A stretch of DNA of 58,913 nucleotides, counting the filler, from Sphacelaria rigidula (taxonomy: Eukaryota), in assembly GCA_964200075.2 (NCBI GenBank). It is 7 parts of 7 records of this genome, joined end to end, with 100 filler letters (N's around TTAATTAATTAA, not from the genome) between each part and the next. Parts side by side here need not be neighbours in the genome. Positions count along the whole stretch, not along the records: positions 1 to 8,332 come from CAXNAA020011498.1; 6 more parts are not named here. The stretch is one strand, 5' to 3'. Positions 95 to 58,548 of this stretch are shown piece by piece. The translations under genes were made by a program, and so were the position numbers. The notes under the pieces are model-generated. The model did not search any database, had not been told where the DNA came from, and was given only the letters and a program-made list of their open reading frames with translations. The first letter of the stretch is position 1. Each line of letters opens with the position of its first letter.

Positions 95-628
95 GCGATT
101 TCGAGTGGGGGGCTGGAACCTGCCAGAAAGAAGAATGGAGCATACCAATAGTCAAGTATAGGAGGAAGTAGATGGACAGAAGTGTGGCAAGGAATCAGAG
201 TAGAGCTTATATTGTGGGAGGACTTGAACTGTTTAGGGAGGAACGGGACATGTGGAGGAGATAAGCGAACGAAGCGAATGAGACGTGAAAACATTTGGTA
301 CATTAGATCGTAGCGAGAAAATGATGATTATTCTAGGATATAGATGGTGGCCACAGACGGCGAAACAGGAAGGAAATAAGATAGGTCAAATGTTTTTGTG
401 AAATGTATCGAAGAAACGTCGTGAGCGTCCCAATGTTGGAGGTGTGTCGACTAGGAGTAGGGATAATGCTGCGTCTCGAAGGGGATGCGTGGTCAATGGC
501 CCAATGACTAGGGCAAGACACAAGTGAGCACCTCCCCCCCCCCTCCTTCGCGGTGCTCTGTCTCGAAAGGGATGCGCGGTCAATGGTCAAACGACTAAGG
601 CAAGCAACAAAGGAGTACGCCCCCCCCC
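95..628 (+). mobile_element. Two tandem 5'-truncated copies (95-543, 552-628) of a poly(C)-tailed non-LTR retrotransposon 3' end
   Basis: Degenerate translation CGKESESRAYIVG...FGTLDRSEKMMIILGYRWWPQTAKQEG... resembles the decayed C-terminal zinc-knuckle region of a LINE ORF2. Both copies end in close variants of the family terminus gtctcgaaagggatgcgtggtcaatggtc...gcaagcaacaaatgagtac followed by a C-run. Confidence 0.75.
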
Positions 629-5710: not shown

Positions 5711-7092
5711 ATGTCGGCTTGTGGAGCAACAGGTCGGGGGTTCGAGTCTCCAGACGATCGAGAAACATCCTTAGCCCCGTAAAAAAGTAGCAACGCGCCG
5801 CGTACGGTATGGACTTTGTTATTATTGTTTCGCGGAGGCTGAACCAATCACATGGCATGGGCAGATAGCATACCGACCGAACTTGAACAGCCAAAAGGAA
5901 GCGCCCATGGATGGAAATAAGCGAGTAAAAAAGTGCCACACAAAATGTTGCAACTGTACCCTACCAGGAAATTATGTCTGCTTCTGGGGTGAACCACTTC
6001 TTGATTATAATCCAGAGCTACTCCACCAACACACCGGGTGCGTCTAGGACCCAGTGTGGGTCATTATTAACGGGGCTGTTTTATTCAGGCTTTTCCGGCT
6101 GTTTCCGGAAAAAAAATCCTCCCCTATAGAAACTGTGACAGGAGATATCTCAACCACGTCAAGGAATAGAACTATTTCAGACTGACTAAATGTTACTCGG
6201 AAAATCAGCTTTGGATTTTTTTTATCACTCGTTTTGGAGACGCGCCGAAATTTTTTCCGCGAAAGTCGAAAGAGTCTTACACATCGCTGCTCCAAAAGCA
6301 TCATGCCACGAGACAAATCTAGCTGTAGGAGGTGGTGTGCGGGCACTTTGCTGTTTGCAGATTCTTCTACCTGCAGGTGGCCGGATCGTCTACACTGCTG
6401 CTCCTTTGCAACCTGTACATATTTTAACATTGTGTGTAACGCCAGAAGTATTGGGTGGGGTTCTCGCCAAACCGGCGCCCCAAATTCAAACCCCACCCGG
6501 CAGCAGAGAACCCTCGGGCAAGGGGGATGCATACTTTGTTCTCCGCAAAATAAGCGTTGGTTGGCAGAGCTCAAATTGGCGCCGCATGCGTCGATTTGAG
6601 TCGAAACGAGCACTCTGGGCGAGTCCTTGGAACCGTGAATCGCGTAGAAACCCGGACATACTGACCCGCACTAAACCCAAAGTAGTTTTCAACTTTGACT
6701 CTGAGGCACCGGCTTTTTGAGAAACCTAATGAAGATACTGCTTTCCGGTGGTTTCCCGAGACGTTGAATATATATATGTATATATTTACATATATGCGGC
6801 AAGCGTCCACGCTCGAACGGACGTTTTGGTCGCTGGTTGGCAGATCACGATCGCTTGAGGATGAATGTCAATGTTTTCTCAAGATAGGAATTTGGAATTT
6901 AGGGCTCGAAACGCGCTTCGAACGATCACAAAATATCAGGTCACACGTTATGGGGGTACAATCTGCGTGTCGTTTTTTTTCTCTCACCACTGTGACACAG
7001 CCCACATCCTCACAGCTCAGAATTCTCGACATACAGCAATGGTTAAAGCAACCCCTCTTTAATCCTTGGGGAGCCGTCCCCTTCCGTCCTCG

Positions 7093-7164
7093 AGCTCCGT
7101 CTCGAAAGGGATGCGTGGTCAATGGTCGAACGACTAAGGCAAGCAACAAATGAGTACGCCCCCC
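7093..7164 (+). mobile_element. 72-bp 5'-truncated insertion of the poly(C)-tailed LINE with 15-bp TSD
   Basis: ccccttccgtcctcg is duplicated at 7078-7092 and 7165-7179; the insert translates APSRKGCVVNGRTTKASNK*. Confidence 0.85.
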
Positions 7165-7844
7165 CCCCTTCCGTCCTCGGGCCAGACGCCTCATACCCTT
7201 GACAAAGGAGAAAATATGGGTGCAGAAAAAGCCGACAACAACCTTTTTTACGGCGGGAGGCCACAACCAAATCCACCAGCATACGTCATGCGTGGACCAA
7301 AAATGTTACCCCGGTGCGGTCGGATTAGTTTTATTCAATGAGGGAACGAAAGGGGTCAAGTGTGTTCAACTTTGTGCACACAGCAAAACCCAGCACCGCG
7401 GCCTATGAATTACATACAACAGAAATCAGCGCCACCTGTATATTTTCTATATACTCTGTCCCGTGCTACACTTGGGCACATTGTTGAACGGGTCCGAAAA
7501 ACAGGCCTTGGACTAACAGTTTTGCGTGAAAGCTGTAAAAAACCAACCATGCGTCGTTGAAAAAAGAGCACCTCGAAATCCACACTTTTCCATCGCCAGT
7601 GCCGAAGGGGTTAAGAGGTGATCCTGAAAAATGGGAACGAGGTTTTCTTATGAGAACGAACAGAGGTCGGAGTTGTTGATGGTATCGAACCTCGTACCCC
7701 CCAAAAGGTTGCCTGTTTCTTGTAAAATGGGTACGAGTCCATCCCACTTGCTTTTCTCAGCTACACGCTCATCGCCAGACAAAAAACTTGAGGCTCGGTT
7801 TGTTAAAAGCTTATATTTTGTTTCTATGTCGGCTACGCGTATCA

Positions 7845-7937: not shown

Positions 7938-8274
7938 ATCACTTTCCCTCGTTCGATACTCACCCTCATGCAAATGTCAATCTAGTATCCCCTGGTCGGC
8001 GGTAAAAATCCAGTACCATCGCTAAGGTTGATAATACGAGCCCACTCCGACAAGCTTGTACTGCCGTTGCAACGGATTCATTTTTTGACTCAACACCATG
8101 GTACCACTCACACTTCAAAGATGCGACGAAACGGAAGTCTTTCCTATATACGAACCAAATCCGTGTGAGGCGATAAAAAATCGCCGGAACGAAGCCTATT
8201 CCTGCCGCACTTGGCCCGGGAAGCATTGCTCTCCCTCACCACAGACTGATCCTACCATGGGGGGTGGGCGGAAG

Positions 8275-8332
8275 GGGGGTGTACTCATGATCATGCATGC
8301 CATAGTCATAAGACCTTCGACCTCGCATCCCT
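8275..8332 (-). mobile_element. Diverged (type B) terminus of the poly(C)-tailed LINE, cut by the contig end
   Basis: Reverse complement agggatgcgaggtcgaaggtcttatgactatggcatgcatgatcatgagtacaccccc aligns to the type A terminus. Confidence 0.65.
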
Positions 8333-8432: not shown

Positions 8433-8556
8433 GGTGCTCCGTCTCGAAAGGGATGCGTGCTCAATGGTCAAACGACTAAGGCAAGCAACAAATGAGAACG
8501 GCCTCTTCCCCATCGTAGCGACTATGCATGCATGATTATGAGTACACCCCCCCCCA
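8433..8556 (+). mobile_element. Type A LINE terminus directly followed by a type B terminus and C-run
   Basis: ggtgctccgtctcgaaaggg...caaatgagaac, then gactatgcatgcatgattatgagtacacccccccc. Confidence 0.7.
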
Positions 8557-8701
8557 TCGTAGGATGATTCTAAAAGCGTCGACAAAATCAGCAAGAACTA
8601 GAGCGTTTTGAAACCACGCTTTGGCACCACGTACGCCGAATCCTCCCATTTGCGGGGAAGGGATGGAAAGAACACGCGGCGATAATGCATTGTTTCCCTT
8701 G

Positions 8702-11700: not shown

Positions 11701-14700
11701 TCATATCCCACACGGATTTCATATCCCAGGCGGAAGTCGCGGAGGGATTTGATTCCAGGTGGACATCCCAGATGAATGTGTGTGTTGTCGTCCCTTCTAT
11801 TCTGGACGCCGGTCTACACCTTTCGGTATATCTGGGCGCACCAGCCGGGGTCACGCAGGAGGAAGGTCACCACAGGATTTTTTTTCTTCTTTATTTGTTT
11901 TTAGTACCCCACCTTCCTTATGCGGTGCTTGCCTTTTGTTTTTGATCGCGAGAGGGGTTCAGCACACCCTTTCCCTCGTCGACCGTTACGTCGAATTTTG
12001 TGTACCCACGACATAGCCGCTCTTCATTGTTGTGCATGGTGCGTGAAAAAATCCCAAATGACTCCAAGATTTGTACCCACGACCCAACCGTCAGAGGGTT
12101 TCGAGGTTACCAACTGAGCCACCGGGGCGCACCAGCTTGAATGGTCATTAATATTTCAGGTGCATGTCCCAGATTGATTAAACATATCAGCTATACGTTG
12201 TGCGACAAATGATCGTGACAACATACCGGCTATGTTATCATAACCCTTTGTGGCGTGATTATGCAAGGCCCTCCTGTAGTCTACCGTGAGGTTTGTCGGG
12301 TGCCGCAGTGGTGTTCAGAATAGTGCGCCAGTACCTTTGGTTCTGACGCACACCTACGGTGTTCTCGATACCTTCACGGCGATCAACATCCTCCGCATGT
12401 CAGAGTCCCAGTCGAAGTCTCTGGTTCGTATGCGCTGCAGCAATTCATTATCGAGGCTTCTCCTCCGCAAGATGAATGCCTTCATGGCCGCCTTCAACTC
12501 CTCCTTGGCCTGCCATTGAAAACGGTGTAAACACGCGCGCTCTTGATACGACTTTTCGTTGCGTTTTCCGTGTCTATGATGAAACGTTCCTTCGACTTGC
12601 TCAAGCGAAAGTATAGATCCTGCAATGATAGGAGCAGACTGCGAACGAACGACCGTGCCAGCTGTTAGCGGTGGCCTAGTATTTAGGGGGGGGAGGGCAA
12701 GATTGCGTAAAGAAAAACTGATGGTCGCGTGAAAATCATACTTGAACAAACTATGTTCTTCGTGCGTTGACAGGGATGACCCAAAGCCTAGTATAGACGC
12801 CATCATATATCATTAATCGACAAGATCCAACGATAAGCATCACCGGTCACTCAACGTCGAATAAAGTCCGGCGTGTCCAACAAGTGGCTGCAGATACCTT
12901 GAGAAGTATCTCGAGGTTGATAATACAGAAAGCGTCGACGATGTGTTGAAGTTGGCAACGCGCGTATCCGAAGAGCACATTCTTTTACAGAGGCCAACCT
13001 CATCACAACATTCGAATACGCAATATGGACATTGCCAACTCTCATCACAGCGTCGACGTCGGAAGATCCGTCTCCAGGTATTCCGCTCCGTGAGTATGGC
13101 CTATCCGGTACCATTACGGATCAAACGGCTACGGGTACATCTCCGTGGCATTTCGGAACAACTTTGTACCTACAGTAGTGGGCGGTCTAACTATTTAGGG
13201 GTGTTTTGGGGGTTTTCCTCGCGTACGACTCTTTGATAGAACTCGAAATTGCTAGCGTCGGTAGATTTTAGTACAACAAAACAGATCATATTCGAAACAC
13301 AGTGCCCACGTCAGTCTCAGTTGGTGTTATCGGGCGAAACGCGTAAATACCCCCATTCATCAGGAGGGTGTTATCGACCGTGGAACACAGTTTTTCGGTC
13401 CTAGTGCACTGAGTATGGGCAGAATTTCAGAAAAATAAAACTGTACATTTTTTCACAAATATGATCGGGACGGGCTCGATCGATCGAAAATACAGGAGAG
13501 TAAGAATCTGGGCTGAAACGTGGCAGGACCCCCGATGACCGGTCAGCCCGCAAGTCACTCAATATTGAGTGCATATGATTTTTCCTTTTGGAATGTGGAG
13601 CGGATACAAATATCTTGAGATCCCCGATGTGATGAGAGGTGACAGGCGAAAAAAGCCCCCAAAAATAGCCAATTACGGAAAAATCACAAAATGCCACAAA
13701 ATGAATAGTTAGACCGCCCACTACTGCACACACACTTTCGAACGTCGAATGGGCGAGTCTACTGTCGGCGTATTTCACTAGGCCACTACACGGGGAAAAC
13801 TCTCACCGCCGAAGAAATTATAACAGGTGAGTCCGGTGGAGCTCTTCTCGCACTTTTGGGACCAACATGTCCCGTTGGTCGAGGCCCTCGCCGCCCTCCC
13901 GTTGCTGCTGGTGCAGATCTGGAGCACGACCAATTTGTAGCCACAGGAAGCGTTTGCGTTTTGGCAACACGCAAAACTTTGATGTAAAATGGTTGGTGAA
14001 AATAAATGTCAACTTTTGACGTCGAAGTGACTGAGGGAATGATTGCAGGAACAACTGAACTTTGATGCTACATTTAGCTAGCCACCACGGGTGGTCCTAG
14101 TGTACCCCTGAAGGCCGTCGAGTTCGCCCTGCCCCCTCCACACATTCGCATGTTAGCTATCGACGTGAAACCGACAGTCAGCCGTGGTGGCGACACTAAC
14201 TTCCTCCTTCTACTCGCGATGCAATAGGGGGAACATCCGTCGTTCGTAAGTAATCAGTTTGAGTAAAATACCAACTCCGAACCTGGAGGTTAAGGAGCCT
14301 CCGGCAGGGGGTGCCTTGCTTGATGCCGCTAGTCTTGACACACCGTTTTCGTGAATCTCTGATAACCTCAGCGCGGTATTGGGCACCCACAGAGTCTTTC
14401 TCGTCGCGGAGTGCGATGAATGTCCCTGGAAAAGCACATAAGGAAATCATTACGACGCCATTGTCCTCACAAAATAAGGCGAAGTAAAGTGGAAACTGCG
14501 GGTGATCGCTCATATGCGGCACGTGATGGTTTCGACACAGTATCGAGCATGTCATCGTGGAGGTACAGTCAGTCTCTCGTATAACTTTCGTGATGACGTG
14601 CCCGCAACCTATAGAACCCGACCCCCTTCGGGAGGTCCTCGAAGCCAACGCGCGTCGACATTAGATTTTGACCTTGTACCTCGACGCTCGGAGAGCGTTA

Positions 14701-16243: not shown

Positions 16244-16763
16244 CTGTGTAGGGGTTGTTGTTGGCGGAGGCAACGTGAAACTCGGCGAAGGTGCTGGTCG
16301 TCTATGCCTCGAAGCTGCAGAGAGGCGAGAGAACGGGTGGAAACGGGGGGAGAGCAGGGGTGACTCACCCAAGGCATTTGTATTCTGCTTCTCCTGTAGT
16401 GGGATTTTGTTACTCTTTCGACAAGTTCTTGATATGGATGCAGAAGAGATAGTTGTATTCACCCAAGACTCTCAAACTATTAGATATAAGCGGACTACCC
16501 GTATGGATGGGCTCTGGTCGAGGGAGTACGAGCAGTACCAAGTACCGCAAATATGCACTAATCCTTGAGGGGTTGGAGCTCAGGGCGACCAAAAGAGATT
16601 CGAACTGATCGATAGGTATTGTTTTCGTTTGCCAATATACTGGAAGCAAGTGTGTTGTTATGGCAGCAGGTTGCGTATTCTCAGCGTCCATGGGGCCATG
16701 CAAAGATGCTTTCATCCCTATTCCCTCTCTCAACCCCCCGTATATCTCCAGATGTTCTTCCTC

Positions 16764-17495: not shown

Positions 17496-20400
17496 ATCGA
17501 AGCGGTGGGCCACAACTACTTGGGCACGTTCTTCTCCGCGTGTGATGCGCTGCTGGCTCCGGGGGGTGTGTTAGTCATGCAGGCCATCACAACGCCTGAG
17601 AACCGCTACCAGGAGTACATCCGATCTACGGACTTCATCAACAGCATCATCTTTCCGGGTACGACACAATACCAGGCTACCCTTGAATCCTTTGACCGAA
17701 CATACTGATTGGTTCGGCGTCTTGTCCGCCTGGCATCCCAGCGAGATTCTGGAAAGTGTATATTTGCTATATTTTGATGTACACCCAACGGATTTGGACG
17801 GTTATGACGAGTTGCTCGAGAGAATGAACGTTGTGGTCGTACAGGCGATCGGCAGTTTTTTGCCATGGGTGAGGTTGGTGGGTGAGTGTCTCCGACTCAT
17901 TCATCTGCAATATTCTGATGTGTATGATGGCATTTTTGTAAGCGTGTGATCTCATGGTGATGTAGGCGCGATGACCGCTATCGTTTTCTGTACTGAGATG
18001 GCAACCCGCTACGAATGCGGGGCAATAACCTTTCTTATGTGGGCGTGTATTTCCGCTGTAACCAACTGTTCCGAAACTCCCAGTAAAACCGCCCTTTCAG
18101 CGTTCAAATGGTGGCCCTGGGAAGCATGGGATGAAACCCCGACTCTTTCTCGAAAAAAAAAAAAAATGTTCGAAATCTGACCGTTGGTGTTTTTGGCCAT
18201 TCCCACACCATGGACACAGGGGGGAGGAGTCCTTACAAGATCTCAATTTTTCAGTTCCCCTAAAATTTGGATTGGGAGAAAAATGCGTTAAATCCAGTTG
18301 ATTGAGTTGTCCGACGTAGTCAGACCTCTGCTACTGGAATTGGTCCACATGAGGGTACTTCACTAGATTGGGAGCAGAGACACACACTGTTTTCGAGATG
18401 TTGGTACTAGTTGACTTCGGGTCAGAAATATGGAACTGATGTGAAGATGACAAATTTTGAAATCGTTGGGGGACAGTGCCGCACTCAGGATTCGCACCTA
18501 CATTAGATCCCTCCGACAGCTAATGTAAGTGCTTGCAGAGGCCTTCACACTGCTTTGTTGTTTGATGTATCCATGCAAACGGACGTTTTGACAGAGGAAA
18601 GGCTCATTCAGTTTTTTTGTCGATTAGTCGATGGGTTGATTGTCGCACATTAAATGACCCCCCAAGACGCTAGCTGTGATCAGTGAACGGGAGATGGACG
18701 TTAACAGTGTGAATAAAGAACGGAAAGCCTCGCTCAAGGAGGCTCGAGACAGGAGCAGTAGTGGTATAGAGGGGGCGGGGTAAACAGAAGAAAGACAAAT
18801 GAAACGTGACAAAAAATATAAGAAACCGCACGCACTTGAGTAAGAAAAACAGGCCCTACGTTATGGTCATAATCCATTGCTGCTCCGGCATCTCACCTCG
18901 AACGTCCCCCGTTCTCCACGCGTGACCCAAATTGCCGTTGCCACAGGTAGGGGCACATGGTAGGTGATCAGGAATATTTATGTTGACGCGAGCCATCGGC
19001 CCGTCCTACTCGAGCCCTCGTGGTCGATGTTTTAAGATGTCCCACGGGGACTGGATCAGGTGTACGGTTGAGTATTGGTACAGAAGGATACGACGGTAAA
19101 TGTGCCCGTGGTTGCATCTTCAGGTGCTGTGCGAGGGCGTGTGTCCGATCGTTTGGCTCTTGAATCACTGGTTAGTCCGAAAAGGCTAGCTGGCAACATG
19201 GGTCCTAATTTCCGATACGGTACCACGTATCGGCTCTCGATACTTTGATAGTGTCCGCACCAATATCCAGCCGTCATCGGCAGCAGAGCGTTGTCTTGTG
19301 TACCTGTGATGCGTAAAAAACGCCGAGTTTAAATGACGGACTGGCAATGTTTCCTCACCAGGCTTGGAAGAACAAAAAGGAAGAGCATCATGCGACAAAA
19401 GTGCCTTCAGGGAAGAGAAAGGGTAACTCCAAGATACAGAGTACTGCCGTCAATCGCCCGCGCTGTCTTTGGCTATTGCTGATCGTCTGTTAGGTTCGTG
19501 CTGCCCGTCACTGAACGCTCTACTGGAGGCTATGGCGAAGAGCAGCGAGTTCTCCTTGGAAGGACTGGACAACATATGCTTGCACTACGCTCGCACGCTC
19601 AAGGAGTGGCGCCACCGCTTCAACCACAGCGTGAAGCAGGTAGATGTTGGGTATGACTACCGTGTCGTGTTTGCCCCCAGTATTCCTCGAGATGAAAATG
19701 CATGCAGCACTCGGCGGTAAACTAGTAAAGGGGAAGAAAAAAAAAGGTAAATTATTATAGTTACCCAAACAATACGAAACAGTATAAAACGAGTGTGTAT
19801 CCAGTAGAACCCTTCCACACGTCAGACAACTTATGAGCTACCTGAAATGAATAATCGAAGATGACTCTCAGACTCGTTGTCCACCACAAACTACATGGTA
19901 GCAGGGTCCGAGAAGCCAGGGCTTGACGTTTGACACTTTTTACGATAGCCCCCCCCCAAAAAAAAAAAGAAAAAAAAAGGCATGGTTTTGGGAGGCAAAA
20001 ATCTCCACGTAAATCAAAATGGGAAAAGCCGAACACAACGAGCAGATGGAAATTCCCACGCTTGGGTTCGTTCCAGCCATTATCCCCAATATGAGGCGCT
20101 TCATGCAGCCTGAACCCAAACATCAGGCGCTATATGGCACTTTTTTTCGTAACCCTTTTGGGCTGGTGTCGGGGGGGGGGGGGTATCGTAGAAAGTGTCG
20201 TTTACGTTACTCCGCATGCTCGACGTCTAGCGCTGCAGGGGGAAAATAGGAAGAAATGGACCACATGAACCAGCTCATGCGGTACACTGTAAGAAGTTTA
20301 TGTTCGGGTAGCGCATGAGCTGTCGGACGTGCGAATGCTTCGTCTACCATAGGCTGTCATCACCGGATGGCTCAATCGACTTCAGATCGGTATGCACTGA

Positions 20401-25294: not shown

Positions 25295-28210
25295 TCCTTC
25301 CTATTTTGCTTGTATCACTACTACCCTTCGCTCTTTGTAGCTCTATCCATTGTTGGTCAGCTTTCTCGGAGGTCGTGAGCGGTGCTGTGTTTACTTCTTT
25401 TTCCCCAATTTTGAAAACCGATCCAGGATCCAGCCCATTCAACTTTGAATCCTGGGCACTCACTACCAAACCCATGTGTTCCTCCCTGGTTGGGCTTTTG
25501 AAATTTCTCGGCCAAACGCCACTAGCTCCAATGAAGTAAACATCCATGTTTCGAGGGTCTGTGATTTGGGCATCCCCAGAAATATCATTTTCGTTCGGTG
25601 GCTATGGTAGACGCGACAACATATCGGCATTTGCGTTAACACGCCCTGGCTTGTACTCGATTTCGTACGTGTACGCACTGAGGAAGTCGTGCCAACGCTG
25701 AACTCGCGGAACCTTTTCTGCGAGACTCAGTAGATTTCTCAACGGTTGATGATCCGTGTAAATCTCGAACGGCACGCCATAGAAAAGTGGCCTGTTCTTT
25801 TTTATGGCCCATACAATAGCCGCTGCTTCTAGTTCAGACACACTCCAATTCCTTTCGTTGGGGAGTGTTCCTCTACTTAAAAAACCAGAGGACGAACCGT
25901 ATTGTCCTCTTGACGTTGTTCCACCACCGCGCCTAAACCATCCAGTGAAGCATCCGTGGTGAGCATAAATGATCGTTTCCCCGAAACTGCGCCGTCATAA
26001 TTTGGAAATGCTAGAACATTTGTACTTGTCAAGGATGATAACATTGCCTTGACTACAGCTTCATGTTCCTGGGTAAAATCAAAACGAACCCCCTTCTTGA
26101 ACAACTGCGTTAGAGGTTTGAGTCTTGCAGCCATACGCGGAATAAATTTTCGGTAGTACCCCAACCCTCCCAACAATGATCTGAGCTGAGATACATCCTT
26201 TGGCATTGGCATTTTTGTCAGAGTCCGTACCTTCTCCTGATCCGGGGAAATCCCATCAGCCGAGATGTGATGTCCTAAATATTTCGTTTCTCTTGTTCCT
26301 ACGTGTGCCTTGTTCGGTGCTAACTTGAGATTGTACTTGGTAAGTCGTTGAAAAAGACCTTCCAGATCCTCTACATGTTGTCCTCCTGTTCCACTGAACG
26401 TACACACATCGTCAATGTATAGGCGACATCGTGCCAACCCATCACATATTCTTGTCATGATAGACTGGAACCAACCTGGACTTCCGCGACATCCCATAGG
26501 CATGACCAACCATTCATACAGAACACTTTGCGTGCAAATCGCCGTCAGAGGAATGGAGTCCTGGTGTACAGCTACGTGAAGTATCCGGAGGTGATGTCCA
26601 AACATGAAAATATTTTGGCACCCCCCAGTTCATCCAGGAGTTCCTCAATTATTGGAATTGGTGACACCGGAATTATTGTACGATCATTAAGCTTCTTGTA
26701 GTTGCATGTAAGTCGAACGGACCCATCCGCTTTGTTCACCACTACTAGCGGACTACTCCAATTTGAATATGACCTCCTCAAAATGCCTGCAACCAACATG
26801 CGATCGATTTCCACTTGTACTTTCTTTTGGACCGCCGGGTAATTATGCCGATACGGGCGCTGTTTTACAGGCCTCGTTCCCGGTTTGAGTTCAATCCTAA
26901 ACGGATCCACCATGCAATACCCCAAATCCATCTTGTCCTTTGAAAATCTATGTGAATATTTGCACAAGAGTTCCCCCAATTTTTTTGATGTCCTTAACCT
27001 TCCAGTGCGCAGCTTCCAACCCAAACTTCATTTTTCGCAAATGTGTGGGAAGTTTCACCCACATATCTTTAAACGCTTGTTGTTGATCACCGTCCAAGCC
27101 TGCTAAAACTGGAGGTTCTTCTAACTGCTGGTCTACTGCGAATACTTCCTCGGGTTCCGGCTCCGTTGTTTTTGAGATCTTCACTTCCTCCAAAGAGCAT
27201 GGCACTAAAGGTGCTCCAGCGAAACCTAGAGTGGTGTTCGGGGACAACCTCTGTCCTTCCAAACCGGTATATTGGAGAGGGATGATAGAGTCACCTGCGT
27301 CTATAATAATCTCATGGGGAGACCAATCTGGCTCCAGAGTTACATAGTAAGAGCCACTCTCAGACGGTGTTCCATCCATGTAACAGAGTTTGACAGGGAC
27401 CCATGACAATATATCTGGTCGCATCATCTCCTGAGATCCGTTGTAAACTACTGTAACTTGATTGAGCTGCCGACGACTTTGGTTCCACGAAGCCAACAGT
27501 ACTGCGGACTTGTTCCGCAAACGCACGATCAACTGAGTCGATGTTATGTCCTTGCAAGGTCATGATTGTCTCTCGTTGGTTTACATCACGATACGTTCTG
27601 ACCGGGAATAAACCTAGGCCATCACGTCGTACTAAAACGTCATAGTTCATAGTTCCGTCCGGTACTACATGAGCGTAAATTGCCGAACATGCGCGTCCGG
27701 TTTGAACCGATATTTTTGGGTTGAGTCTTCTAGGCCACAATCGAATATTCAACCGCACCTGTGAAGACGTGCACAACGGAACACTATTGAAACCACCCCA
27801 GGATACAGGGTCTATTTCCCGGGTACCTTCAATGGTAGCCGCCCCAACATCAACCATTTTTTCCATATTTTGTAATGAATAAACGTCGCAGGACTCCCCG
27901 TGTCTATCAAAGCTTTTACCTCTAAAGTTCTAGTTGCCTTCCGGCCTGAGAAAATTTGTGCCCGGGTTGAACTTTCTTTACGGTTTAAACTCACTTCTCC
28001 TCCCATCACTTGCTGGATTTCTTCCAAGTAGGGTCCTTTCCTCCCTCGCGCAACCTGGCTAGATAATGTCGCTGGCACGCGTGGCAGAAACTGGTTCTGT
28101 AGGCAAACGACTGCCAGTTTTCGGGTCCAGCCAAGGTCCAGCGCGTAAATACTTTCCCCCGGTGTCCTACTTGGGCCGCTACCATTTTCTACAACTACAC
28201 TACGCACGAC
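25295..28210 (-). mobile_element. Ty3/gypsy LTR retrotransposon pol, frameshifted (protease-RT-RNase H); the integrase region would lie beyond the contig edge
   Basis: ALIDTGS protease; WSSPLVVVNK, CLDITSGY, MPMGCRGSP and YIDD RT motifs; TDASLDGLG, ELEAAAI, YTDHQPL and NADMLSR RNase H motifs; frame breaks near 26575 and 25877. Confidence 0.95.
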
Positions 28211-32323: not shown

Positions 32324-33010
32324 CCGGTCGCCCCGGTGGCTCAGTTAGGAACCTCTGGACCGTATCTGCCGGTTGGGTCGTGGGTTCAATTCTCGGAGCG
32401 ATCTGGGACTTTTCCCCACACCATGCCCAGCAGTGGAGGGCGACTATGTCGTGGGTACACGAAATTCGACTTCACGGTTGACGAGGGAAAGGGACTGCTG
32501 CACCCCTCTCGCGATAAAAAATAAAGGTAAGCACCGCAGAAGGAAAGTGGGGTACTAAAATAAACAAAAAAAAAGCCCCTGTGTTGACCTTCCTCCAGTA
32601 ACAATGTTCAATGTTCTCGTGAGATTGAGAGTAAAGGATGCGATTGAGAGTGAAAAGCGCTCAAATAGTTGATGAGTAGTTTTAGTTCCGAAATGCCCCT
32701 CCACGAGGCTCGGTATCCTTCCTTCTGTAGTAGCTTGCCACTGAGGCCCTTGATATTCCTGAGTAGGATATCGACGTGTAGCTGTAAGCACCCGCCGGTG
32801 ATCGAGGTGGAGAAGAGGACACATGGAATAAAAAATTGACTGCGTTAGAGCGAATGATCAAAGCCACTCCCAATCATCGCTCCATTGTACTCTTAATCTC
32901 ACGAAAAGGTTTTTCTGTGTGACCCCGGCTGGTGGGCCCATATACACCGGAAGGTGTAGACCCCGGCGCCCAGAATACAGCAGATGGGACGACAATACAC
33001 ACACACACAC
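32324..33010 (+). mobile_element. tRNA-derived SINE split by a nested MITE (about 32597-32914)
   Basis: SINE sequence stops at gaccttcctcc (32596) and resumes at ctgtgtgaccccggctgg (32915); the insert has inverted ends tcgtgagattgagagta / tactcttaatctcacga. Confidence 0.85.
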
Positions 33011-35542: not shown

Positions 35543-37450
35543 TTAATCTCTAGTCGGGTACAAACCTGAACTCTCTCTCGACCATTTCCATAATGGATTC
35601 TTCACGAGCTGTTGCTGTTGTTGTGCCAGGGGTGGCGGCTCTCCGATGGGCAGCTTTCGGTGCAGCAACCTTTCGTTTGCGGCGGAGATTCGATTGAAGT
35701 TAGCCTTCGCGTCGCCATGCTTCCTTGAACTCCTCCGCCCCTCTCTCGACTCCAAGATATATACCATTACTCGCCCATGTAGTTGGCCTCAGTGGTCCAA
35801 TCGTATGTGGCTGTGACCTTCACTCCGTAGGCGAACCATTTCTGTCGCTTATGTAAGTCTCCCTCGTGGTGCACATAGGTTCTCCTGAAGGCGGTCTGCT
35901 CAGTGTTTGGGGCGCCGGCCAACCTCCTTGTATCCTTTTCCGGTTTACCGTCCGAACATAGTGCGCCGTGAAAGATGCATTTCGTCCCGCCGGACTAGCG
36001 CCCCCGAGAAGCGGAGTTACCTCAAGCGGATCGTCGTCTCGATACGATCGCACTTGGCGATCTCGAGCACATTTACGTACGACATGCGTTTGTAGCCTTG
36101 TGGAATCCAACCATTTGCAGCAAAAACTATTACTGACATCCTCCGGACGCGGCGTCCATATAGCACATCCGTGAAGCGTAGATTCCACCACATCCGCTCA
36201 AAGCAGCCGCATTATTAGAGGTAGCCGGGTCTTGGGCCGACCGTATAATTGGGAACTGCGGTTCCGGATGCGTGCCTACGCAGCGCTGATGCGGCGGTTG
36301 GATTCGGTGGAAATATTCACCTTTGCGCTGACAGCGCCAGCAATGTAGACAAACTTGGGCGTCTGTTCATACCGTTGGCCTTTCGCCTCAGGGTGCAGTG
36401 CGGTGCGGAACTGGGAACTGAACACAGGCGTATGGACTCTGCCATACTTTCCGATGCCATAAGTCCGAACTCCTGACATGTCACCACTATCACGACCATC
36501 ATTCTAGCAAGCCCGTCTGGGTCCTCGACATTATGCCTGCGTCATCCACATTTAACATTACCCACAACGCGCGCCGCACGTTCCCCAGTCGCGTCTCTTG
36601 CAGAGGTTTTCACCGTCGTCACCGTTTGGTGCATCATTCAGGAATCCCAAGTCTGAGGCGATAGCTGGGTCTATCGTTAGTCGATGTACGGTCACGTCGA
36701 CAAAGGCTGCATCGAATATGTTGAACAACTACGTACGCTCTAAACGCATCCCTGCCTGCGTCCCTGGCAGACGTGAAACCACGTTGATAATAAACTATGA
36801 TCCAGCTGTACTCGAGCTCGCATGCAATCGTGAATCATACGGACAACCTTGATCATCCGCAGCGGGACTCCCAATCTAGGGAAACTTCCCACAGGGGCGC
36901 GCAATCCACTGAGACGTAGGCCTTTTGCGGGTCGATAAAGTACATGTTTTGTGGGACATTGCTCTCCCGTCGCAACTCCTATGGCCGGCGTACCACGAAG
37001 ATCATGTAGGTGGACGATCGTTGGTGCCGCAATCCACGCCGTTCTTCCGGGAGGATCCTTGCCTCCTCGCAGAAGCTACCGAGCCTGTCGGGTACGATTT
37101 TGGGGAGACTTTTATCGGCGTGTGCCACGAGGGTAATGCCTCCGAACTTACCGCACTCGGTCCTATCCTTCTTCTGTGGAGTAGTGTGATAGTTGCGTCT
37201 TTCCATTCCTGTGGCCCTTCGTAGATGTCCAGATCGCAGCGATGACGCTATGAAACTGGTATAGAAACTCTGAAGGCTACCCTACCAACTTGAGAACGTC
37301 AGCATGTAGACCATCTGGGTCCATCGCTTTGTCGTTAGCCACAGCTCTCAAGGCATCTTTGATTTCAGTTGGGCTTGGTGGGTCTCCGATGATAACACTG
37401 TCGGTCGTTGCGCCATGTTCTCAATGACGGCCCGGTTGATAATTACCTAT
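35543..37450 (-). mobile_element. RTE-like LINE ORF2 (reverse transcriptase) pseudogene
   Basis: KKDRTECGKFGGITLVAHADK...ILPEERRGLRHQRSSTYMIFVVRR (RT N-terminal part), KFVYIAGAVSA...ESNRRISAA and VESTLHGCAIWT; many stops and frameshifts. Confidence 0.9.
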
Positions 37451-41160: not shown

Positions 41161-41969
41161 GTCTATAGCGAGGTCCGTAGAGAGGAGAAATGCTCAACCA
41201 AGCCAGCGCCAATTGACGCATGTAGTGTAGCACATAGGTTTCAGCAAGGACTGGGTTTAGCCGATAGGGTCACGCGGGGGTTAAAGAAGTATTGAGTTGA
41301 AACATCGGCTTTAAGGGCGGCGTCTTGCAGTGCCCTAGGCACACCTGTACTGTATCTGGAACGAGTGGTCTTGCTATTCGAGCAAACGTGGCTTAGTTCC
41401 TGCATCACGGCTGGCTCCCAACCGGGTCCAACACAAAGCTGCTCGACGCCGCGTTCAAACGCAGAAACGCATCCCCACACAAAAATAACACTATTTCCAG
41501 GCGGACTCTAGAATATGTGTTTGTGGTCTACCACCGTCCAGTGAAAACACGCGTTGTGCAGGCGTGGTAGCACATGGACTCATCGTGCACGCCACGGGTG
41601 CTGTTAGTGAAAGAGGCAGGATCAACGAGAACTTCGCCATGGACGAGATCACGCTCAAGCCCTTCCGTGATGTAAATAGATCAGCGTCGGCGGGGATAAC
41701 AGTAACGGCAGTCGGCGGATGATCCGCAGGGGGGACGAGGGCATAATCGGCGAGCCTAGTGCTCCCGCGCGTCGCTGGTAGATGTCGTATGAAGATCGGG
41801 CATAGGAAATTTCGGGAATATAGCTGTCTTCGTAAGACAGGGATCGCGATCATCACCGGCTCCGGGCTGCCTGGTGCTTGTGACACAAACAAGGAGGGGC
41901 GGCATACTCTGTGGGAAACATATTCAAATCGTATTTTCCGAGATGCCAGGTAAACCTGTCAAACTCAAA

Positions 41970-42055
41970 GTCTTCATCTTAGGAGATAGATGGTGGCCAG
42001 AGACGGCGAAACAGGACGGGGATAAGATATGTAAAAGGATTTTGTGTAATGTATA
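41970..42055 (+). mobile_element. Internal fragment of the poly(C)-tailed LINE, cut by the contig end
   Basis: Translates FILGDRWWPETAKQDGDKICKRILCNV; homologous to 333-410 and 43776-43850. Confidence 0.7.
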
Positions 42056-42155: not shown

Positions 42156-42492
42156 CGAAAGGGAGCGTGGGGAAGAGGGGAGGGTAGGGGGGGGGGGGGG
42201 GGGGGGGTGGGGGGGGGGCGGCCGGCAACAAGTTGTGTGAAAGGTTTTTGTGTGATCCATGAAATAAACGTAATGAGCGCCCAAATCTTGGAGATGTCTC
42301 CGTTTCGAGTAGAAGTGGTGCTCCGTCTCGTCAAGTACGCCCCTCCCTTCCGCGCCTCCTCTCTCTCCTCGCTCGTGGATGATGACAATACATACGATCA
42401 ATCCAATATACGTGCCTACCTATTTGGATCGACGGTACTGTACATGTAACAACATCCTCGCATGGTTGTGTGCGCGGGTGGATGTGTCATAG

Positions 42493-45400
42493 GCTGGGTG
42501 TCGCGGAGCTGGAGAAACGTTTGCAAGCGAGGCTCTCCTCTATGAAGGGCTTGCTGAAGGAAACCGAGGACATGTGAGCTAAGATGGAATTAAAAAAATA
42601 ATAATACTACACCCCGGATAATGACGAGATACTACATTGGTAAAAAAGTGTACTATGTTCAGTATCGACTATTTCGGGTATTGTAATGTACAACAGATTC
42701 CATACTGCACGCAGCACATTTTTTGTTGATATAGTCTTTTGTCCAGGGTGTCAATTTCACAGTAGTTTGGACGCAACGCCCCCGTTTGTGATCGTCAGGT
42801 ATTTGTTCGACTTGGAAATATATATGTGGAGACCACATATGTATGAGCGTAATGAACCTTTGGGAATACCTTTTCTGTGGTGTGATACTCCCCGCTCGTC
42901 CGGTTGCTCGTTTTGGTCTATAGCGACTTCTACGACCCAGATGATGACGGCTACGAGATCGACCTCGCGTCCGGCGGCGGCGAAGTCGTCGATGGAGATT
43001 CAGGCGGAGGCGAAGGTAATTTTTTCTCGTGTCGAAAGCCTTCTAGCTGTCAATCACGGTGGAGATCAGGTGGAAAAACGAAGAGGGCAAAGGAGGGCGG
43101 CGGTGCTGCATATGCTACGGTGTTTTTTTTAACCGTATATATATATATATATATATTCCCCTTGGAAAGCATGTCGAAACTCGAGGGCAGCGTGATGCAT
43201 CTCTTCCGTCACTCACGTACGTGAGGGAAAATTCGTGGCTTTTACTCGAAACGTTGTTCGTTCCCCCCCCCCCTCCGTCTCGAAAGGAATGCGTGGTCAA
43301 TGGTCAAACGACTAAGGCAAGCAACAAATGAGTACGCCCCCCCCTTCCCCCTCTATCATTGACGCAAAGTGGGCAAACTCGCCGAATTAACGAGCAAATA
43401 CTGTATATGCAGACTGACCATGATGGTGGACATGATGCCGAATTTCTCGCGAATTGGAAGCACATGATTGTCAGCTAATGGACGAGGTCTCAGCCTCCGT
43501 AGATCGGACAGCGTCAGAACGCATGGGCATTGAGTTGGTTGGGAGCACGATGCACGCATGGTTGATGTTTAAAAGGTATTGTTACTGACGGTACTCTGGA
43601 TACGTTCGTCCTTCTCTCCCTGCGGTAAAGCAATAGACAGTATAGCTTATTTCGTGGCAGAATATGAACTATACAAGAAGCAATGGAAAATGTTTGAGGG
43701 GTTATGTGGCAAGCAATTGAAGGTTGCACGTGATCGTCTGATACGCTAGATAGTGGCAATAAGACGATGACTATACTAGGAGATGGATGGTGACCACAGA
43801 CGGCGGAATAGGAAATGGATAATATGTGTAGAAGGTCCTTGTGTAATACATGGAAGAAACGTGATAAGCGCCCAAATGTTGGTGGTGCCTCTATTAGGAC
43901 TAGAAACGGTGTTCCGTCTCGAAAAGGGTGCGTAGTGAGTGGTCGAATGACTAAGGCAAGCAGTAAATGAGTACCCTCGCCCCCCCGTCCGCCCGTTCGA
44001 CCTCACACACGCGCGCTATTTCAACGTGTAGGTGTACCGGAAGAGTTGGGGATGGTGGCGCGTGCTGAGGCTGAGGCCGCTGGCGGTGGGTACCGCATGC
44101 GTGGTCCGAGACCAGCTGCTGCTGCCAGCGGCGAATCGACATCATCCTCACCGCCGACCGCAGGTATTTTAGCTATACTCTGCTTCCTGATTAATGGAAA
44201 GACTACCCCCTTTCCCCCCTCCTGGTCCGGCAAAAACCCGGCGTGCTCTGTCCCGGCGTCGTAGAGATGCAAGGTCAACGGTCTTATGGCTTTGGCATGC
44301 ATGACCATGAGTACAATCCATTTACCCCTCAACCTCTATGGTGGGAGCAAACTAACTGAAAATGTAGAGAGCAATATTTTGTACTGTGCTGGTACTTGTT
44401 TTTTTTTCTTTTCTACTTGCTTCCTCTTTTTTTCCTCAGTCTTGCTCCGTTTGTTTGTCCTATCTTATTTCTTACTTTTCCAATTTATTTTGTCCTTCTA
44501 TTCTATCAGCGTTTCTGTGTTGTTTTGCCTTGGTACGTACGTCTATCGTGTGTCTAACTATGAGCCATGACTTGGCCCCTCAGATCACTTGTGTACAACA
44601 ATCAAGCTTTGCCGTGCCCACTGTTCCAGACGGTGAGCGTATTCTATGCGTGGTTGTCGATCCGTTCGTTGATTGCGTTATTGGTCCGTTGATGTTACGA
44701 TTCGTCAATTGATTCATTTGATTGATTGATCGATTTACTACTTGATGAATGTATGCATCCGTTGGTTTGATTGACTCAGTAATTTATTGATTTGTTGATT
44801 TATTTATTCATTCACTCATTCATCCATTCGTTCATTTTTTTTATTTGATATACTTGATTTTTTGGTTCTCTGATTGATTGCTTCAATTATATGTTGATTT
44901 ATTATTTGATTTACATTCCAATTTGTTTTTGCTCATGATTTGATAACATTCATTCATTCATTCATTCATTCAAGATTGTTTGAGTTGAATGGTTGGTTGT
45001 ATTTTATTTTTTGGACTAGGGAAAGTCAATATATAGGATATACAAAATTCATGAATAAGAATTAATCAAGAGCAACCGGTCGCCCCCGTGGCGCAGTTGG
45101 TAACCTCGAAATCTTCTGACGGTTGCGTCGTGGGTTCAACTCTCGGAGCGATCTGGCAGTCTTTGTTACAACATGCTCAACATTGGAGAGTGACTATGAT
45201 GTGAGGACACAACATTCGACTTAATGATCGACGAGGGAAAGGGAAAGATCAACTTCCTGATGAAAAGTAAAGGGAAGCACCGCAGAAGGACACTGGGGTA
45301 CCAAGAACAAGAAAGAAAGAAAAACTCCGGTGTTGACCCTCCTCCTGTGTCACTCCCGCTGGTGCGCTCACACACACACACACACACACACGCACGCACA

Positions 45401-48400
45401 TACGTACGTGGGCGTTTTTTCGGTTGTAGCGTGATGAAAAGCTTGAAACTCAAGGAATACCACGTGAGTACAAACGTCCAATGCAATTGATTGTTCACCA
45501 GATTGAACAATCGAGTGGTTGGTTCCTTGATCGATTGATTGATGGACTGATTGTCGCACATCAGCTGTTCCCCCAGGGATCCAGTCCTTTTTCGCGTGAT
45601 GGACGTACTCGAGATGGAAGAACAAAACGGAAACACTCGCTGAAGAAAAGTGAAGAGGACAGAAGAGTACTGACACTTTCTACGATAGCCCCCCCTCCCC
45701 CCCCCCTCCAAAAGAAAAAAGCCCAAGACTGTGGCGAAGAAAATGGCCATACAGCGCCTTATGTTTGGCTTCAGGCTACATGAAGCGCCTCATGTGGGCG
45801 GCATTGGCGGAAACGAACCCAAGCGTTGGAATTCGCAGCTGCTAGTTGTGCTCGGCTTCTTTCATTTCGATATATGCGTAGATTCTGCCTTGCCAAACCA
45901 GCCACTTTGTTGGGGGACGCCATCGTAAAAAGTGTCCACTGTGGAACAGACGAGCGCAGTAGACATAAAATATTGTGAGAAGGCACGCCCTAACAACAGC
46001 AAAAGTAATAGCAACAAGAATGGATCATGGCAACAACCATTCACGGTGAAATTGAGTATCGCGTCCAATACGAATTATGTTACTCAGATACACCCTCGCT
46101 GTGTACGTATGCGGCGCTGTTCTTATGCAGCTTCGGACAAAAAAGCCGGTAATAGCGGTGTTTCATCCCCGGGATCTACGAAAGACACCGAGCCCGCCTT
46201 TTCGTCGTCCTCCTCTACACTGGAGAATGACTTGATGTCATCTGGCGTGGCACTTGAAGGCGACGGGATCGGTAGCAAGAAAGGCTCGAAGAAAAAGAAG
46301 AAAGCCGGCGCTGGAGGAGGGACTGGCGAAGACGATAATGGTGCGACGTTGGGAACTGACATTCCTAGGTCGCCCTTGGAAGCTTCGGGCGTCGACGCGT
46401 TTCTCGAGAGGGAGGAGCAGCGGAAGGCCGACCGAGTTCGGGATCGCAAAGGGAATGGCGGTGTCGGTGTAGATGTTGGTGACGTTGGTGCTGCTGAAGG
46501 TGATGCTGCTGCTGATGGAAAGAAGGCGAGGAAGGACAGGGTGAGACGTGAAGCCATGCCGTATTTATATATATATATATACATATTCATTTTGTTCCGA
46601 ATAAAGTATGTCATACTGTACCGCTTTTTCTTCTGTTTGTTTCGTTTTTGTTTAGTTTTGTTTTATTTCTTGTTTACGTCCTGTCACCTGTTTTTGTCAA
46701 GCCATACTCCGTTTGATTACGTAGTCTTTTTCCCTTTTCGTCTATTGTCTTGTGCCTCTCTCGATTTTTCTTGTGGCGACCGTCTTTTTTTCCCGTTTTG
46801 CTTTACCTCGAGTACTGTACGCTTATGTTGTGACCAAGGCTGAATCCATGGGGGATCTGTCAAAATGCGGTACTCAACGGATCAAACCAACTTCACAATA
46901 TCATACACGTCGGAAAATCCATTCATTGACCCTTTTGGAACCCGTTGACGATTCTTGTTTTTGTGAATCGGCATCGTTTTCATGCATTTTCAAGTCAAAA
47001 TGATGCCGAATTCACAAGAAGAAAAATCGTGAACAGGTTTCCGAAGGGTCGACCCAGTCATATTGTACAGAGCATCCAGTGGAAATATCGTAGGTACCGC
47101 TGAGGTATACCGCATACCTCATCGCTGAGTTGTTCGAGGAATGAGCTGGCCCGAGTCAAGGTTAGTTGAGCTTTATCGGAGGTGTGCGATACTCATCGAG
47201 TCGAGGATGGATTAATGCCGTTGTCCTGATCAGGTGATGGAAGATAATAAAGGGGTGGAAAACACTCGGGGAATATTTTGTTCCAACGTACAGTTAGCGC
47301 CACCACTGAAAAAATGTTTGGCGTGAGGCTCGAGTTCTTGTTTCCTCTGTTGGCTATCAACAGCCATCATATACCGGTTTTAGTTCGAACTTATTATCCA
47401 GGGATTACAATCTGTGCTCAAGTTCTCAAATGCCGACTTCTCAGGTGTAGGCGCTACCCGTATGTGTGCATCGGTCTCTTGAAATGCTATCGTTTTATTG
47501 TCATTATCATTTTATTATTATTGTTGTTATTGTTATCGTGAAAATCTCTTCTTTTTCATCAATATGAAAATTATCATCATTTTGTGAATATAACCGATCT
47601 CTCGAAACCGTGGTACCAGACGTGAGCTAGTATTTCCAGTGGATGACATGTTCACAATATTTTGTGCTCAAAAAGTGTGGATCCTGGTCCTGTGCGCCGC
47701 ATGTCATGGTCCACGATCTTGTTTTTGTTTCCATCCACACACAGTTTTTATTGTACCACCGCGTCTGGGTTGATCTCCCGGCTCCCATTTTTTTGTTGAT
47801 CTGATTTCCTTCTGCTTGAATTCTGAGTAGTAGGCCTGTACCCACGGAAGGCGTCCGCAGTAGATGCCTAGTACGGAGGTTGAAGGGTACTGTACTGCGC
47901 AGAGATCGGAGCGGTTTGTAATGTGAAGACAACATAAACAACAACAACAACAACAAAAACAGCAATATCCATCGTGCGAACCCCCGCACTGTACAAGACA
48001 GTACAGATTCCAGCACCCTGCCAGGTGCTGGGCCCGCTACTCTGTATGTGTTCCGAGGACGAGTGAATCTGGTAACAACTCCAAGATACTAACAAGAATG
48101 GCGAGAACAGGCTTGAGATGCAAGAGCTAAGCACAATCTCGCACTGGCAACCCCTCACCTCAGAGCTATGTAACAGTAAGGCTCTCTCAATGGCTGAGCA
48201 TGGTGCTATCCTCAAGCCCATCTTACATCACCCTTTCCTGTTGCGGGTTTCCTCGTTTTTCGTGTTTCCACACGTGGAATAACACCCTTATCGGGACAAG
48301 CTCGTCGATAGCTCCAAGAGATCACTCAACCCCCGCCTATATCTCCTCTGGAGCAGCACTTGCCTTGAACACTAGCGTGTCGAGCATTAATCCCCACAAT

Positions 48401-50396: not shown

Positions 50397-50484
50397 GGGG
50401 GGGGGGGCGTACTCATTTGTTGCTTGCCTTAGTCGTTCGACCATTGACCACGCATCCCTTTCGAAACGGACCGCCGTTCCTAGA
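50397..50484 (-). mobile_element. Poly(C)-tailed LINE terminus, cut by the contig end
   Basis: G-run followed by cgtactcatttgttgcttgccttagtcg... Confidence 0.8.
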
Positions 50485-53880: not shown

Positions 53881-53999
53881 GGGGTGGGGGGGGGGGGGGG
53901 GGGGGGGGGTGGGGGGGGTGGGGGGGGGTTTGGGCTTACTCATTTGTTGCTTGCCTAAGTCATTTGACCATTGACCACGCATCCCTTTCGAGACGGAGC
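53881..53999 (-). mobile_element. Poly(C)-tailed LINE terminus with about 18-bp TSD
   Basis: aagtgtgaagaggggggg is present at 53805-53822 and 54001-54018; the interval includes G-runs and a short N-run. Confidence 0.75.
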
Positions 54000-54047
54000 A
54001 AAGTGTGAAGAGGGGGGGAAATGTCTGCCCTGCTGTCCTCAATACTG

Positions 54048-57944: not shown

Positions 57945-58548
57945 TTGAGTTACAGATTATTTGGTAGAGAGTCCGTCTAGAACGATAGCTCGAAGCTCAT
58001 AAAAATAGCTGATGCTGGGCCCGGCACCGCCGCTGAATTTCGGCGCTTCTTGCTACCCAAACCTTCACTTCGAACTTGCGACTGATCGATCGCCATCATA
58101 CCCACGCTACTTCTTGCCATTGCTCCTTCATTTGTCCATCATTTCGCCAGCTGAGGATATGAATTTTGTGTGTGCTACACAGCGAAAGATGTTGGTGTCA
58201 TGCCGTTGAAGATTTGCACTACCCGGTGAATGCAACACCAACCGCTGCATGATAATGTGCGGGATATGTACCCTATATCAGAAAGGGATAAGGACGCCGC
58301 AGTAGTGTTTACCCTCCACTATGGAGCAATGCATCGGTTGATCCTGGCAGTTCTTCTCGTGCTGCAGTGTCCTTCCTTTGCACTACAACTGGTCTAAGTG
58401 AAAGTAGTCAGAGTTGTACAATATTTTGCACGTACCCATCTTAGCTTCTCGCGAGAAGGTTCACCAAGAATTCACCAACCACCTCCCCCACGAGGATGTG
58501 ATTTGAACCCCGGTCCATTTCCCTACCCTCGTACCTACCCTTATCCTC

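Follow-up and report, generated by a model that had tools for sequence, protein, structure and literature searches.

We report that a cytosine-tailed terminus recurring through 58,913 nt of Sphacelaria rigidula DNA (assembly GCA_964200075.2; this whole stretch is hereafter called the window) very probably belongs to a heavily 5'-truncated autonomous retrotransposon devoid of long terminal repeats (a non-LTR retrotransposon), with an apurinic/apyrimidinic (AP) endonuclease and a reverse transcriptase (RT) in one open reading frame (ORF), from a brown-algal lineage annotated as RTE-X in Ectocarpus. The window consists of seven pieces of about 8.33 kb, each of which appears to be a whole short contig, joined by N44-TTAATTAATTAA-N44 spacers, and contains an additional 9-N gap at 53872-53880. 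The copies share a 3' end, are truncated at the 5' end, carry target-site duplications (TSDs) of variable length and have neither LTRs nor terminal inverted repeats (TIRs), as in long interspersed nuclear elements (LINEs) of the AP-endonuclease (APE) type. In the copy under study (7078-7179, Table 1), a TGA codon at 7151-7153 is followed by GTACG and the C-run. The perfect 15-bp TSD starting with cccc that a preliminary description had reported for this copy is confirmed, the two halves being exact repeats; the border between the C's of the tail and the four C's of the TSD is arbitrary here.

A 41-nt core of the terminus has six sites in the window at up to three mismatches, while none of 100 shuffled sequences gave any. 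BLAST identified 11 tail-bearing copies and one internal ORF fragment of the main family together with three copies of a sister family, in five of the seven contigs altogether. All nine sites listed in the preliminary description were recovered; these nine occupy four contigs, not five, and the figure of five contigs is reached only once the copy at 41952-42055 is added.

Link to an endonuclease-reverse transcriptase reading frame

Firstly, the terminus is coding sequence. Copies sharing only 70-85% of their DNA keep one frame, ...ILGDRWWPQTAKQEGDKI.K.FLCN...RNERPNVGGVS.RSRNGAPSRKGCVVNG.TKASNK*, and encode an ORF end, ...SRKGCVVNGxTKASNK*, whose stop lies 5 nt before the C-run. When the protein of an old, long copy (copy A) was used as a query, with one stop read as X, it retrieved seven longer proteins, and a second query, the 375-aa P0002, retrieved P0008, P0009 and P0010. 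Over the C-terminal 147 residues of P0008 (aa 1214-1360), copy A (96-524) shows 51% identity (E 1e-30). P0008 (1360 aa) carries an Exo_endo_phos domain at aa 170-392 (E 3e-12) and an RVT_1 domain at aa 740-989 (E 1e-30); P0009 (1328 aa) carries Exo_endo_phos (E 8e-15), RVT_1 (2e-32) and also Exo_endo_phos_2. The best PDB matches of both are human LINE-1 ORF2p (E 7e-21) and R2. Endonuclease and RT are therefore found in one protein in P0008 and P0009, of which the ORFs themselves were read; a separate ORF1 farther upstream is possible. Thus the RT frame expected upstream in long copies is present in full-length relatives, outside the window, and the endonuclease, whose class the preliminary description had left to be determined, is of the AP type in these relatives. 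The third protein, P0010, is a gene model from Ectocarpus sp. CCAP 1310/34 in which the C-terminal third of the LINE is joined to a gypsy polyprotein.

Secondly, the position of the stop is shared. All four relatives whose frame runs unshifted to the 3' end (P0001, P0008, P0009 and P0010) end in ...ASNK at the window stop position; the 5-nt 3' untranslated region (UTR) is therefore genuine, which bears out the earlier statement that the element has almost no 3' UTR. A scan of a prokaryote genome collection added one public contig (CBRFFM010000043.1, 5,259 nt), filed as a bacterial metagenome-assembled genome but evidently algal. Its copy of the LINE, L001, has 139 open codons followed by TGA, GTACG, C14 and a G-rich flank. 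L001 was read with 400 nt of flank, the other ~4.7 kb of the contig being long enough that it may contain the complete ORF, and its tail is nearly identical to the young window copies.

Upstream of the shared part, a CCHC-like motif, CPCGKxxESRxHIVGEC (CPCGx7-8Hx4C), was recognized by eye only and is decayed in the window copies; the domain search did not report zf-RVT for P0008. Pfam gave nothing useful on the short ENA proteins P0001-P0006, and a protein-cluster search with P0008 returned only generic endonuclease/RT clusters, with taxa mostly unrecorded. On other contigs, in P0003, P0004 and P0007, the LINE C-terminus adjoins a second shared translated repeat (...RRTPSRHCRDA.VYGHTTTAMHD.EY...), which suggests that another element habitually sits beside these tails.

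Clustered 5' ends and the short unit

The copies have bodies of 28, 63-71, ~107, ~120, ~362 and ~438 nt and a common 3' end. The variable 5' truncation described earlier holds in so far as the 5' ends differ overall; it does not hold among the complete young copies, all five of which start within about 7 nt of one another, around ggtgctccgtctcg (549-552, 7093-7096, 43272-43274, 53998-54000 and 58548-58549).

One way to account for this, which would refine rather than replace the reading as a truncated LINE and which we regard as possible though on the whole unlikely, is that the 63-71-nt copies, including 7093-7164, are full-length, head-less non-autonomous elements mobilized in trans by the LINE, much as is presumed for RTEX-N1 and RTEX-N2 of Ectocarpus. 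Besides the common start, the young copies are 92-97% identical to one another over a 60-nt core and only 75-85% identical to the old long copies, contig 2 begins exactly at the young-copy 5' boundary, and the non-autonomous partners known from Ectocarpus share only their 3' 60-100 bp with the LINE (PMC12477816, supplementary table). The unit is nevertheless entirely LINE coding sequence, with no head, tRNA-like part, Rfam match or fold, and the long, ORF-intact L001 has a tail nearly identical to those of the short copies. A G/A variant within 'ggtcRaacgact' also suggests more than one source: the G is common to the short copy at 7093 and the longer one at 50397-50484 (98.3-98.6% identical), the other short copies having A, and this is a mild argument that truncation recurred, starting from several sources. 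A short interspersed element or a known RNA gene was considered for the short unit and rejected, the unit being wholly LINE coding sequence; ARAGORN found no tRNA in the window, and a whole-window Rfam scan returned no family.

It is possible, alternatively, that the clustered 5' ends mark a hot spot for RT stopping or for 5' joining. At the two best-resolved junctions (7093 and 53921), the GC at the 5' junction also follows the right TSD, which may be a 2-nt microhomology or chance. We put forward, with considerable reserve, that the short unit of about 18 codons, a 5-nt UTR and a C tail is a minimal retroposon, or a stop point marking the smallest RNA module for an RTE-X RT, and that its tails self-seed targets.

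Target-site duplications and the C tail

Exact TSDs were found at three copies: 15 bp, ccccttccgtcctcg, at the copy under study; 18 bp, ccccccctcttcacactt (54001-54018 / 53805-53822); and 11 bp, ccccatcgtag (8508-8518 / 8552-8562). Their left, tail-free copies begin with C4, C7 and C4, respectively. Since CCCC starts only 0.5-0.7% of oriented window positions, the probability that all three would start with it is ~1e-7. Three more copies (A, 549-628 and 43274-43344) are bordered by a C-run at either end, the match outside the C's being imperfect, while copies 58549 and B offer weak TSD candidates only. The proposed bias of the TSDs towards C/G tracts is thus observed in the window, in that the three exact TSDs start with C4-C7 and three further copies are flanked by C-runs. 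The sequence after the C-run is often T(T)CC (549-628, 7093, 43274 and 8259-8332(-)), and what is preferred may be a wider, pyrimidine-rich site. In the TSD under study, the stretch beyond the C's, ttccgtcctcg, is similar to the 5' end of the element itself (tccgtctcg), a likeness that the other two exact TSDs do not have and that may be fortuitous or left over from an earlier junction.

In the three exact cases the right C-run is longer than the C-run of the left TSD (10 versus 4, at least 21 versus 7, and 9 versus 4). Part of the C's therefore arrives with the element, and the tail is real. A C-run stands behind GTAC[G/A] in young as well as old copies, and likewise in the sister family and L001; among the window copies and L001 none continues past this run to a poly(A) or repeat tail, in keeping with the C tail first described. 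The run abuts the TSD in all three copies with exact TSDs; in copy 53921 this is true of a C21 run separated by the gap from the copy's own tail. At that locus (53881-54000(-)), a C tail broken by A's is followed by the 9-N gap, an unrelated, A-rich stretch of 35 nt, C21 (53816-53836) and the right TSD. The 18-bp TSD starting with C7 reported there is exact; the copy's own tail is split from the right TSD by the gap and the 35 nt.

These observations make it improbable that the RNA encodes no C tail and that the C-run is target sequence only, or C's added by the RT without a template. Tail C's and TSD C's are indeed indistinguishable on the right side, and the tails range widely in length, from C7 to above C24. 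On the other hand, the right run is at least 5-6 C longer than the left in three of three exact cases, the run stands after GTAC[G/A] in old, young and sister-family copies and in L001, and the consensus sequences from Ectocarpus are themselves annotated as (C)n at the 3' end (PMC12477816, supplementary table). Untemplated C addition as reverse transcription begins would still be compatible with the sequence.

That errors of sequencing or assembly produced the C/G homopolymers, with the repeat at contig ends as a by-product of assembly, appears very improbable, since contig-internal copies are flanked by unique sequence and show exact TSDs, and the independent public contig carrying L001 has the same tail. 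What speaks for it is that copies of the two families, five in number (8259-8332, 8433-8500, 16686-16763, 41952-42055 and 50397-50484), lie against five contig ends, that one more, at 53881-54000(-), abuts the 9-N gap, and that odd G-rich low-complexity stretches occur at 981-1100 and 42177-42221. Breaks of contigs at a high-copy repeat are expected; exact homopolymer run lengths may be unreliable. These stretches, with runs up to G21, and a G24 run at 53886-53909 may represent targets, minus-strand tails or noise from the assembly of homopolymers.

A DNA transposon or miniature inverted-repeat transposable element (MITE) with C-rich termini, like the TIR element at 19932-20199 or 'unknown7-N1_Ec32', can practically be dismissed: several copies do have C-runs on both sides, a true MITE-like element of the window has C-runs inside its 26-nt TIRs and an unclassified entry of the Ectocarpus table is annotated with 'C-rich termini / insertion sites' (PMC12477816), but the LINE copies have no TIRs, one fixed end and one variable end, TSDs of 11, 15 and 18 bp unlike transposase products, and the sequence of the 3' end of an endonuclease-RT ORF. 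Three 'tacgatag+Cn' sites (19949, 20183 and 45689) were considered as a second C-tailed LINE and rejected, being TIRs of this MITE-like element. C/G runs are part of the MITE TIRs, and some homopolymers of the window are therefore not LINE tails; by our reading, 16 of the 34 C-runs of at least 7 on both strands are tails or TSDs of LINE copies.

Proposed insertion by target-primed reverse transcription

LINE-1 (L1) nicks its target at TTTT/A, has a poly(A) tail and leaves a TSD that starts with A. The window LINE resembles it in its APE-type endonuclease with RT, probable target-primed reverse transcription (TPRT), 5' truncation, variable TSDs and a TSD that starts with the tail base. It differs in that L1 has a poly(A) added by polyadenylation, a T-rich nick site and a real 3' UTR, and probably also in that L1 has an ORF1; the C tail of the window LINE must be templated or made by slippage. 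By analogy with L1, C:G taking the place of A:T, priming of a C tail on a G-run can be inferred; the specificity may reside in the endonuclease, in the pairing of primer and tail, or in both. In such a scheme the endonuclease would nick the bottom strand within or beside a G-run, the ...GGGG-3'OH set free would anneal to the RNA's (C)n end and prime cDNA synthesis, and a staggered nick of the top strand 11-18 bp downstream would yield the TSD. On the element strand the TSD would start with target C's and merge with the tail, and the variation in tail length would come from homopolymer slippage. Each new C tail would also be a new target, which would explain copies lying in or just after the tails of other copies. 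Two nested cases, 549-628 past copy A and a 28-nt copy 7 nt past 8433-8500, fit such self-seeding of targets.

Several points weigh against the reading as a C-tailed LINE with a preference for C-runs. The window has no full-length copy and no RT or endonuclease of this LINE family, the link to an endonuclease-RT ORF being the homology of the last ~147 residues; membership of RTE-X is taken from how the Ectocarpus relatives were annotated in the literature, not from a phylogeny. Exact TSDs number only three, the others being imperfect or all-C, and the target preference is drawn from this small number and a one-word table note. The position of the nick within the run is not readable from the sequence, and a C end of the RNA is presumed from the DNA copies. 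One sister-family copy (44208-44314) has no C tail, and four of the 34 C-runs belong to the MITE-like element. Random 5' truncation does not account for the common start of the five complete young copies. The RNA fold of 7093-7168 (-17 kcal/mol, z 0.18) is equalled by 117 of 200 shuffles, and the fold of a nine-copy alignment gave 18 pairs with no compensatory change, the copies being too alike for a proper test; with no fold beyond shuffles and no covarying pair, there is therefore no recognition hairpin in evidence.

A C-tailed LINE is a natural experiment on how the 3' end of the target pairs with the RNA tail at the start of TPRT. A C tail predicts targeting of G/C-runs, nesting of tail into tail and assembly breaks such as those seen here. 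If true, a self-seeding LINE would build tandem or nested tail arrays and create much of the G/C homopolymer content of the genome.

Relation to catalogued elements

The preliminary description had left open whether such a family was already catalogued. LINEs of this (C)n-tailed kind are already catalogued in Ectocarpus, and the window family is a further member; the discovery is modest, being that of a relative of a catalogued family. In the supplementary table of a curated Ectocarpus transposable element library (PMC12477816, Genome Biol 2025), RTEX-1_Ec32 is entered as 'single EN-RT ORF; (C)n 3'' with a 'C-rich' TSD, and RTEX-2_Ec32 with '(C)n termini/TSD' and a 'C-rich' TSD. The same table lists two non-autonomous elements, RTEX-N1_Ec32 (607 bp, 'can be present in tandem') and RTEX-N2_Ec32 (188 bp), whose shared part is confined to the 3' 60-100 bp; the remaining curated Ectocarpus LINEs end in (CAA)n (RTE) or (CA)n (CRE). 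According to Table 1 of that paper, RTE-X accounts for 16,418 copies and 3.41% of the Ectocarpus genome, and its notes on best blastp matches of the Ectocarpus RTEX elements name RTEX-4_NV_pol and RTEX-1_BF_pol. 'C-rich' and 'homopolymer' are absent from the main-text passages of PMC12477816 that were searched; tail and target are recorded for Ectocarpus in that source but not analysed in these passages. The searched passages of PMC9942856 and PMC5381506 describe no C-tailed LINE, those of PMC5753468 name RTEX as a Repbase clade and say nothing on tails, and no description of a C-tailed LINE was found in open-access text, Repbase being outside that search.

The window family and RTEX-1_Ec32/RTEX-2_Ec32 have in common a brown-algal host, a long endonuclease-RT ORF that is probably single, a (C)n 3' end, C-rich TSDs and a high copy number with many short copies (PMC12477816, tables). 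The Ectocarpus protein P0010 has a homologous ORF end, with 58% identity to P0002 over 93% of the length. The window family differs in sequence, P0002 being 58-70% alike to P0008-P0010 at the amino-acid level and copy A 43-51% to P0009/P0008. An equivalence to RTEX-1 or RTEX-2 specifically is one that we infer from shared features rather than from a consensus alignment. The short window copies behave similarly to RTEX-N1/N2_Ec32, whose overlap with the LINE is limited to the 3' 60-100 bp, whose TSDs are C-rich and which can occur in tandem; they differ in that the Ectocarpus elements have a 5' head of unknown origin, whereas the window short unit (63-71 nt plus tail) is head-less (PMC12477816, supplementary table). 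Elements of the RTE clade, as RTE-1_Ec32 and RTE-2_Ec32 with (CAA)n (PMC12477816), resemble the window LINE in having a simple-repeat tail rather than poly(A) and probably also in having a single endonuclease-RT ORF. The RTE tail is, in contrast, a microsatellite and not a C homopolymer, and no C-run TSD is reported for it. Very short 3' UTRs are a feature of the RTE clade, Bov-B included, and in this the window LINE is alike.

Copies and families in the window

The features are collected in Table 1. Two copies lie next to homopolymers on their 5' side: a C12 run at 80-91 is directly upstream of copy A, and copy D starts directly after G21/G10 runs at 42187-42218. The sister family ends in ...GCATGCATGAYCATGAGTACA+Cn, with a terminal CATGAGTACA+Cn (8259-8332(-), 8519-8555 and 44208-44314), and has in common with the main family only the last ~10 nt (ATGAGTAC) and a 'gtgctcYgtcYcg' block. 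The last ~10 nt being common to both, the terminal ATGAGTACR motif is therefore conserved across two families. A partial sister-family match lies at 58624-58684. Annotators of brown-algal genomes should expect such elements at C/G homopolymers and at contig ends.

Table 1. Copies of the C-tailed LINE, of its sister family and of a MITE-like element in the window
Feature	Position	Strand	Evidence
Copy A, old, long: decayed C-terminal 147 codons and C10 tail	96-543	+	51% to P0008 aa 1214-1360, E 1e-30
Short young copy with C9 tail, 5-8 nt past copy A tail, nested or tandem	549-628	+	BLAST
Copy under study, left TSD ccccttccgtcctcg	7078-7092	+	Exact 15-bp repeat of 7165-7179
Copy under study, 5'-truncated LINE body, 66 nt: last 18 codons (PSRKGCVVNGRTTKASNK), then stop and 5-nt 3' UTR	7093-7158	+	P0008 C-terminus match (tblastn)
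Copy under study, C tail outside TSD, 6 C	7159-7164	+	C10 at 7159-7168 versus C4 in left TSD
Copy under study, right TSD: last 4 C of C10 and ttccgtcctcg	7165-7179	+	Exact repeat
Sister-family copy with C6 tail, cut by contig 1 end	8259-8332	-	BLAST
Short copy from first base of contig 2, degenerate tail	8433-8500	+	BLAST
Sister-family 28-nt copy (8519-8546) with C tail, TSD ccccatcgtag, 7 nt past copy 8433-8500	8508-8562	+	Exact 11-bp TSD
Internal LINE ORF fragment (P0008 aa 1181-1206, 85%), cut by contig end	16686-16763	-	Protein match
MITE-like element, ~265 bp; 26-nt TIRs GACACTTTTTACGATAG+C9 / G10+TATCGTAGAAAGTGTC, 92% complementary	19932-20199		
Copy C (KVFILGDRWWPETAKQDGDKICKRILCNV), cut by contig 5 end	41952-42055	+	BLAST, protein match
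Copy D, internal deletion of ~50 nt, ending AAGTACGCCCC	42224-42343	+	BLAST, protein match
Short young copy (body 43274-43336), flanked by C11 and C8 runs	43263-43344	+	BLAST
Copy B, old, long: decayed CCHC-like motif, frameshift, stops, C7 tail	43618-43986	+	BLAST, protein match
Sister-family copy, ~107 nt, without C tail	44208-44314	+	BLAST
Second MITE-like copy, decayed ends	45673-45937		
Young copy, C11 tail, body at least 77 nt, cut by contig 6 end	50397-50484	-	98.6% identical to 7096-7168
Short young copy (body ~53932-54000), long interrupted C tail, TSD ccccccctcttcacactt	53805-54018	-	Exact 18-bp TSD
Short young copy (58549-58622), C7 tail, C-rich flank, TSD imperfect only	58549-58635	+	BLAST

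Other features of the window

The window has a GC content of 45-54%, and long ORFs are scarce. A host ORF of 456 aa at 55874-57244(-) has a weak CS-domain match and 19 homologue matches; the four homologues with a named host are all brown-algal (Scytosiphon promiscuus, Ectocarpus fasciculatus, Laminaria digitata and Pylaiella littoralis), which, like the Ectocarpus origin of P0010, fits a brown-algal source. An exon-like host-gene ORF at 49052-49741(+) carries a DEAD-box helicase N-terminus. Among other retroelements, the ORF at 25877-26629(-), with RVT_1 (E 3e-16) and RT_RNaseH_2, is a fragment of a Ty3/gypsy-type LTR retrotransposon, and 36886-37176(-), with 30% identity to the RT of P0008 (aa 736-832, E 2e-10), is a distant non-LTR RT fragment. 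Finally, an unclassified dispersed repeat of ~300 bp occurs at 45075-45372, 2098-2401, 11833-12129(-) and 32324-32599, the copies being 76-78% identical to 45075-45372.

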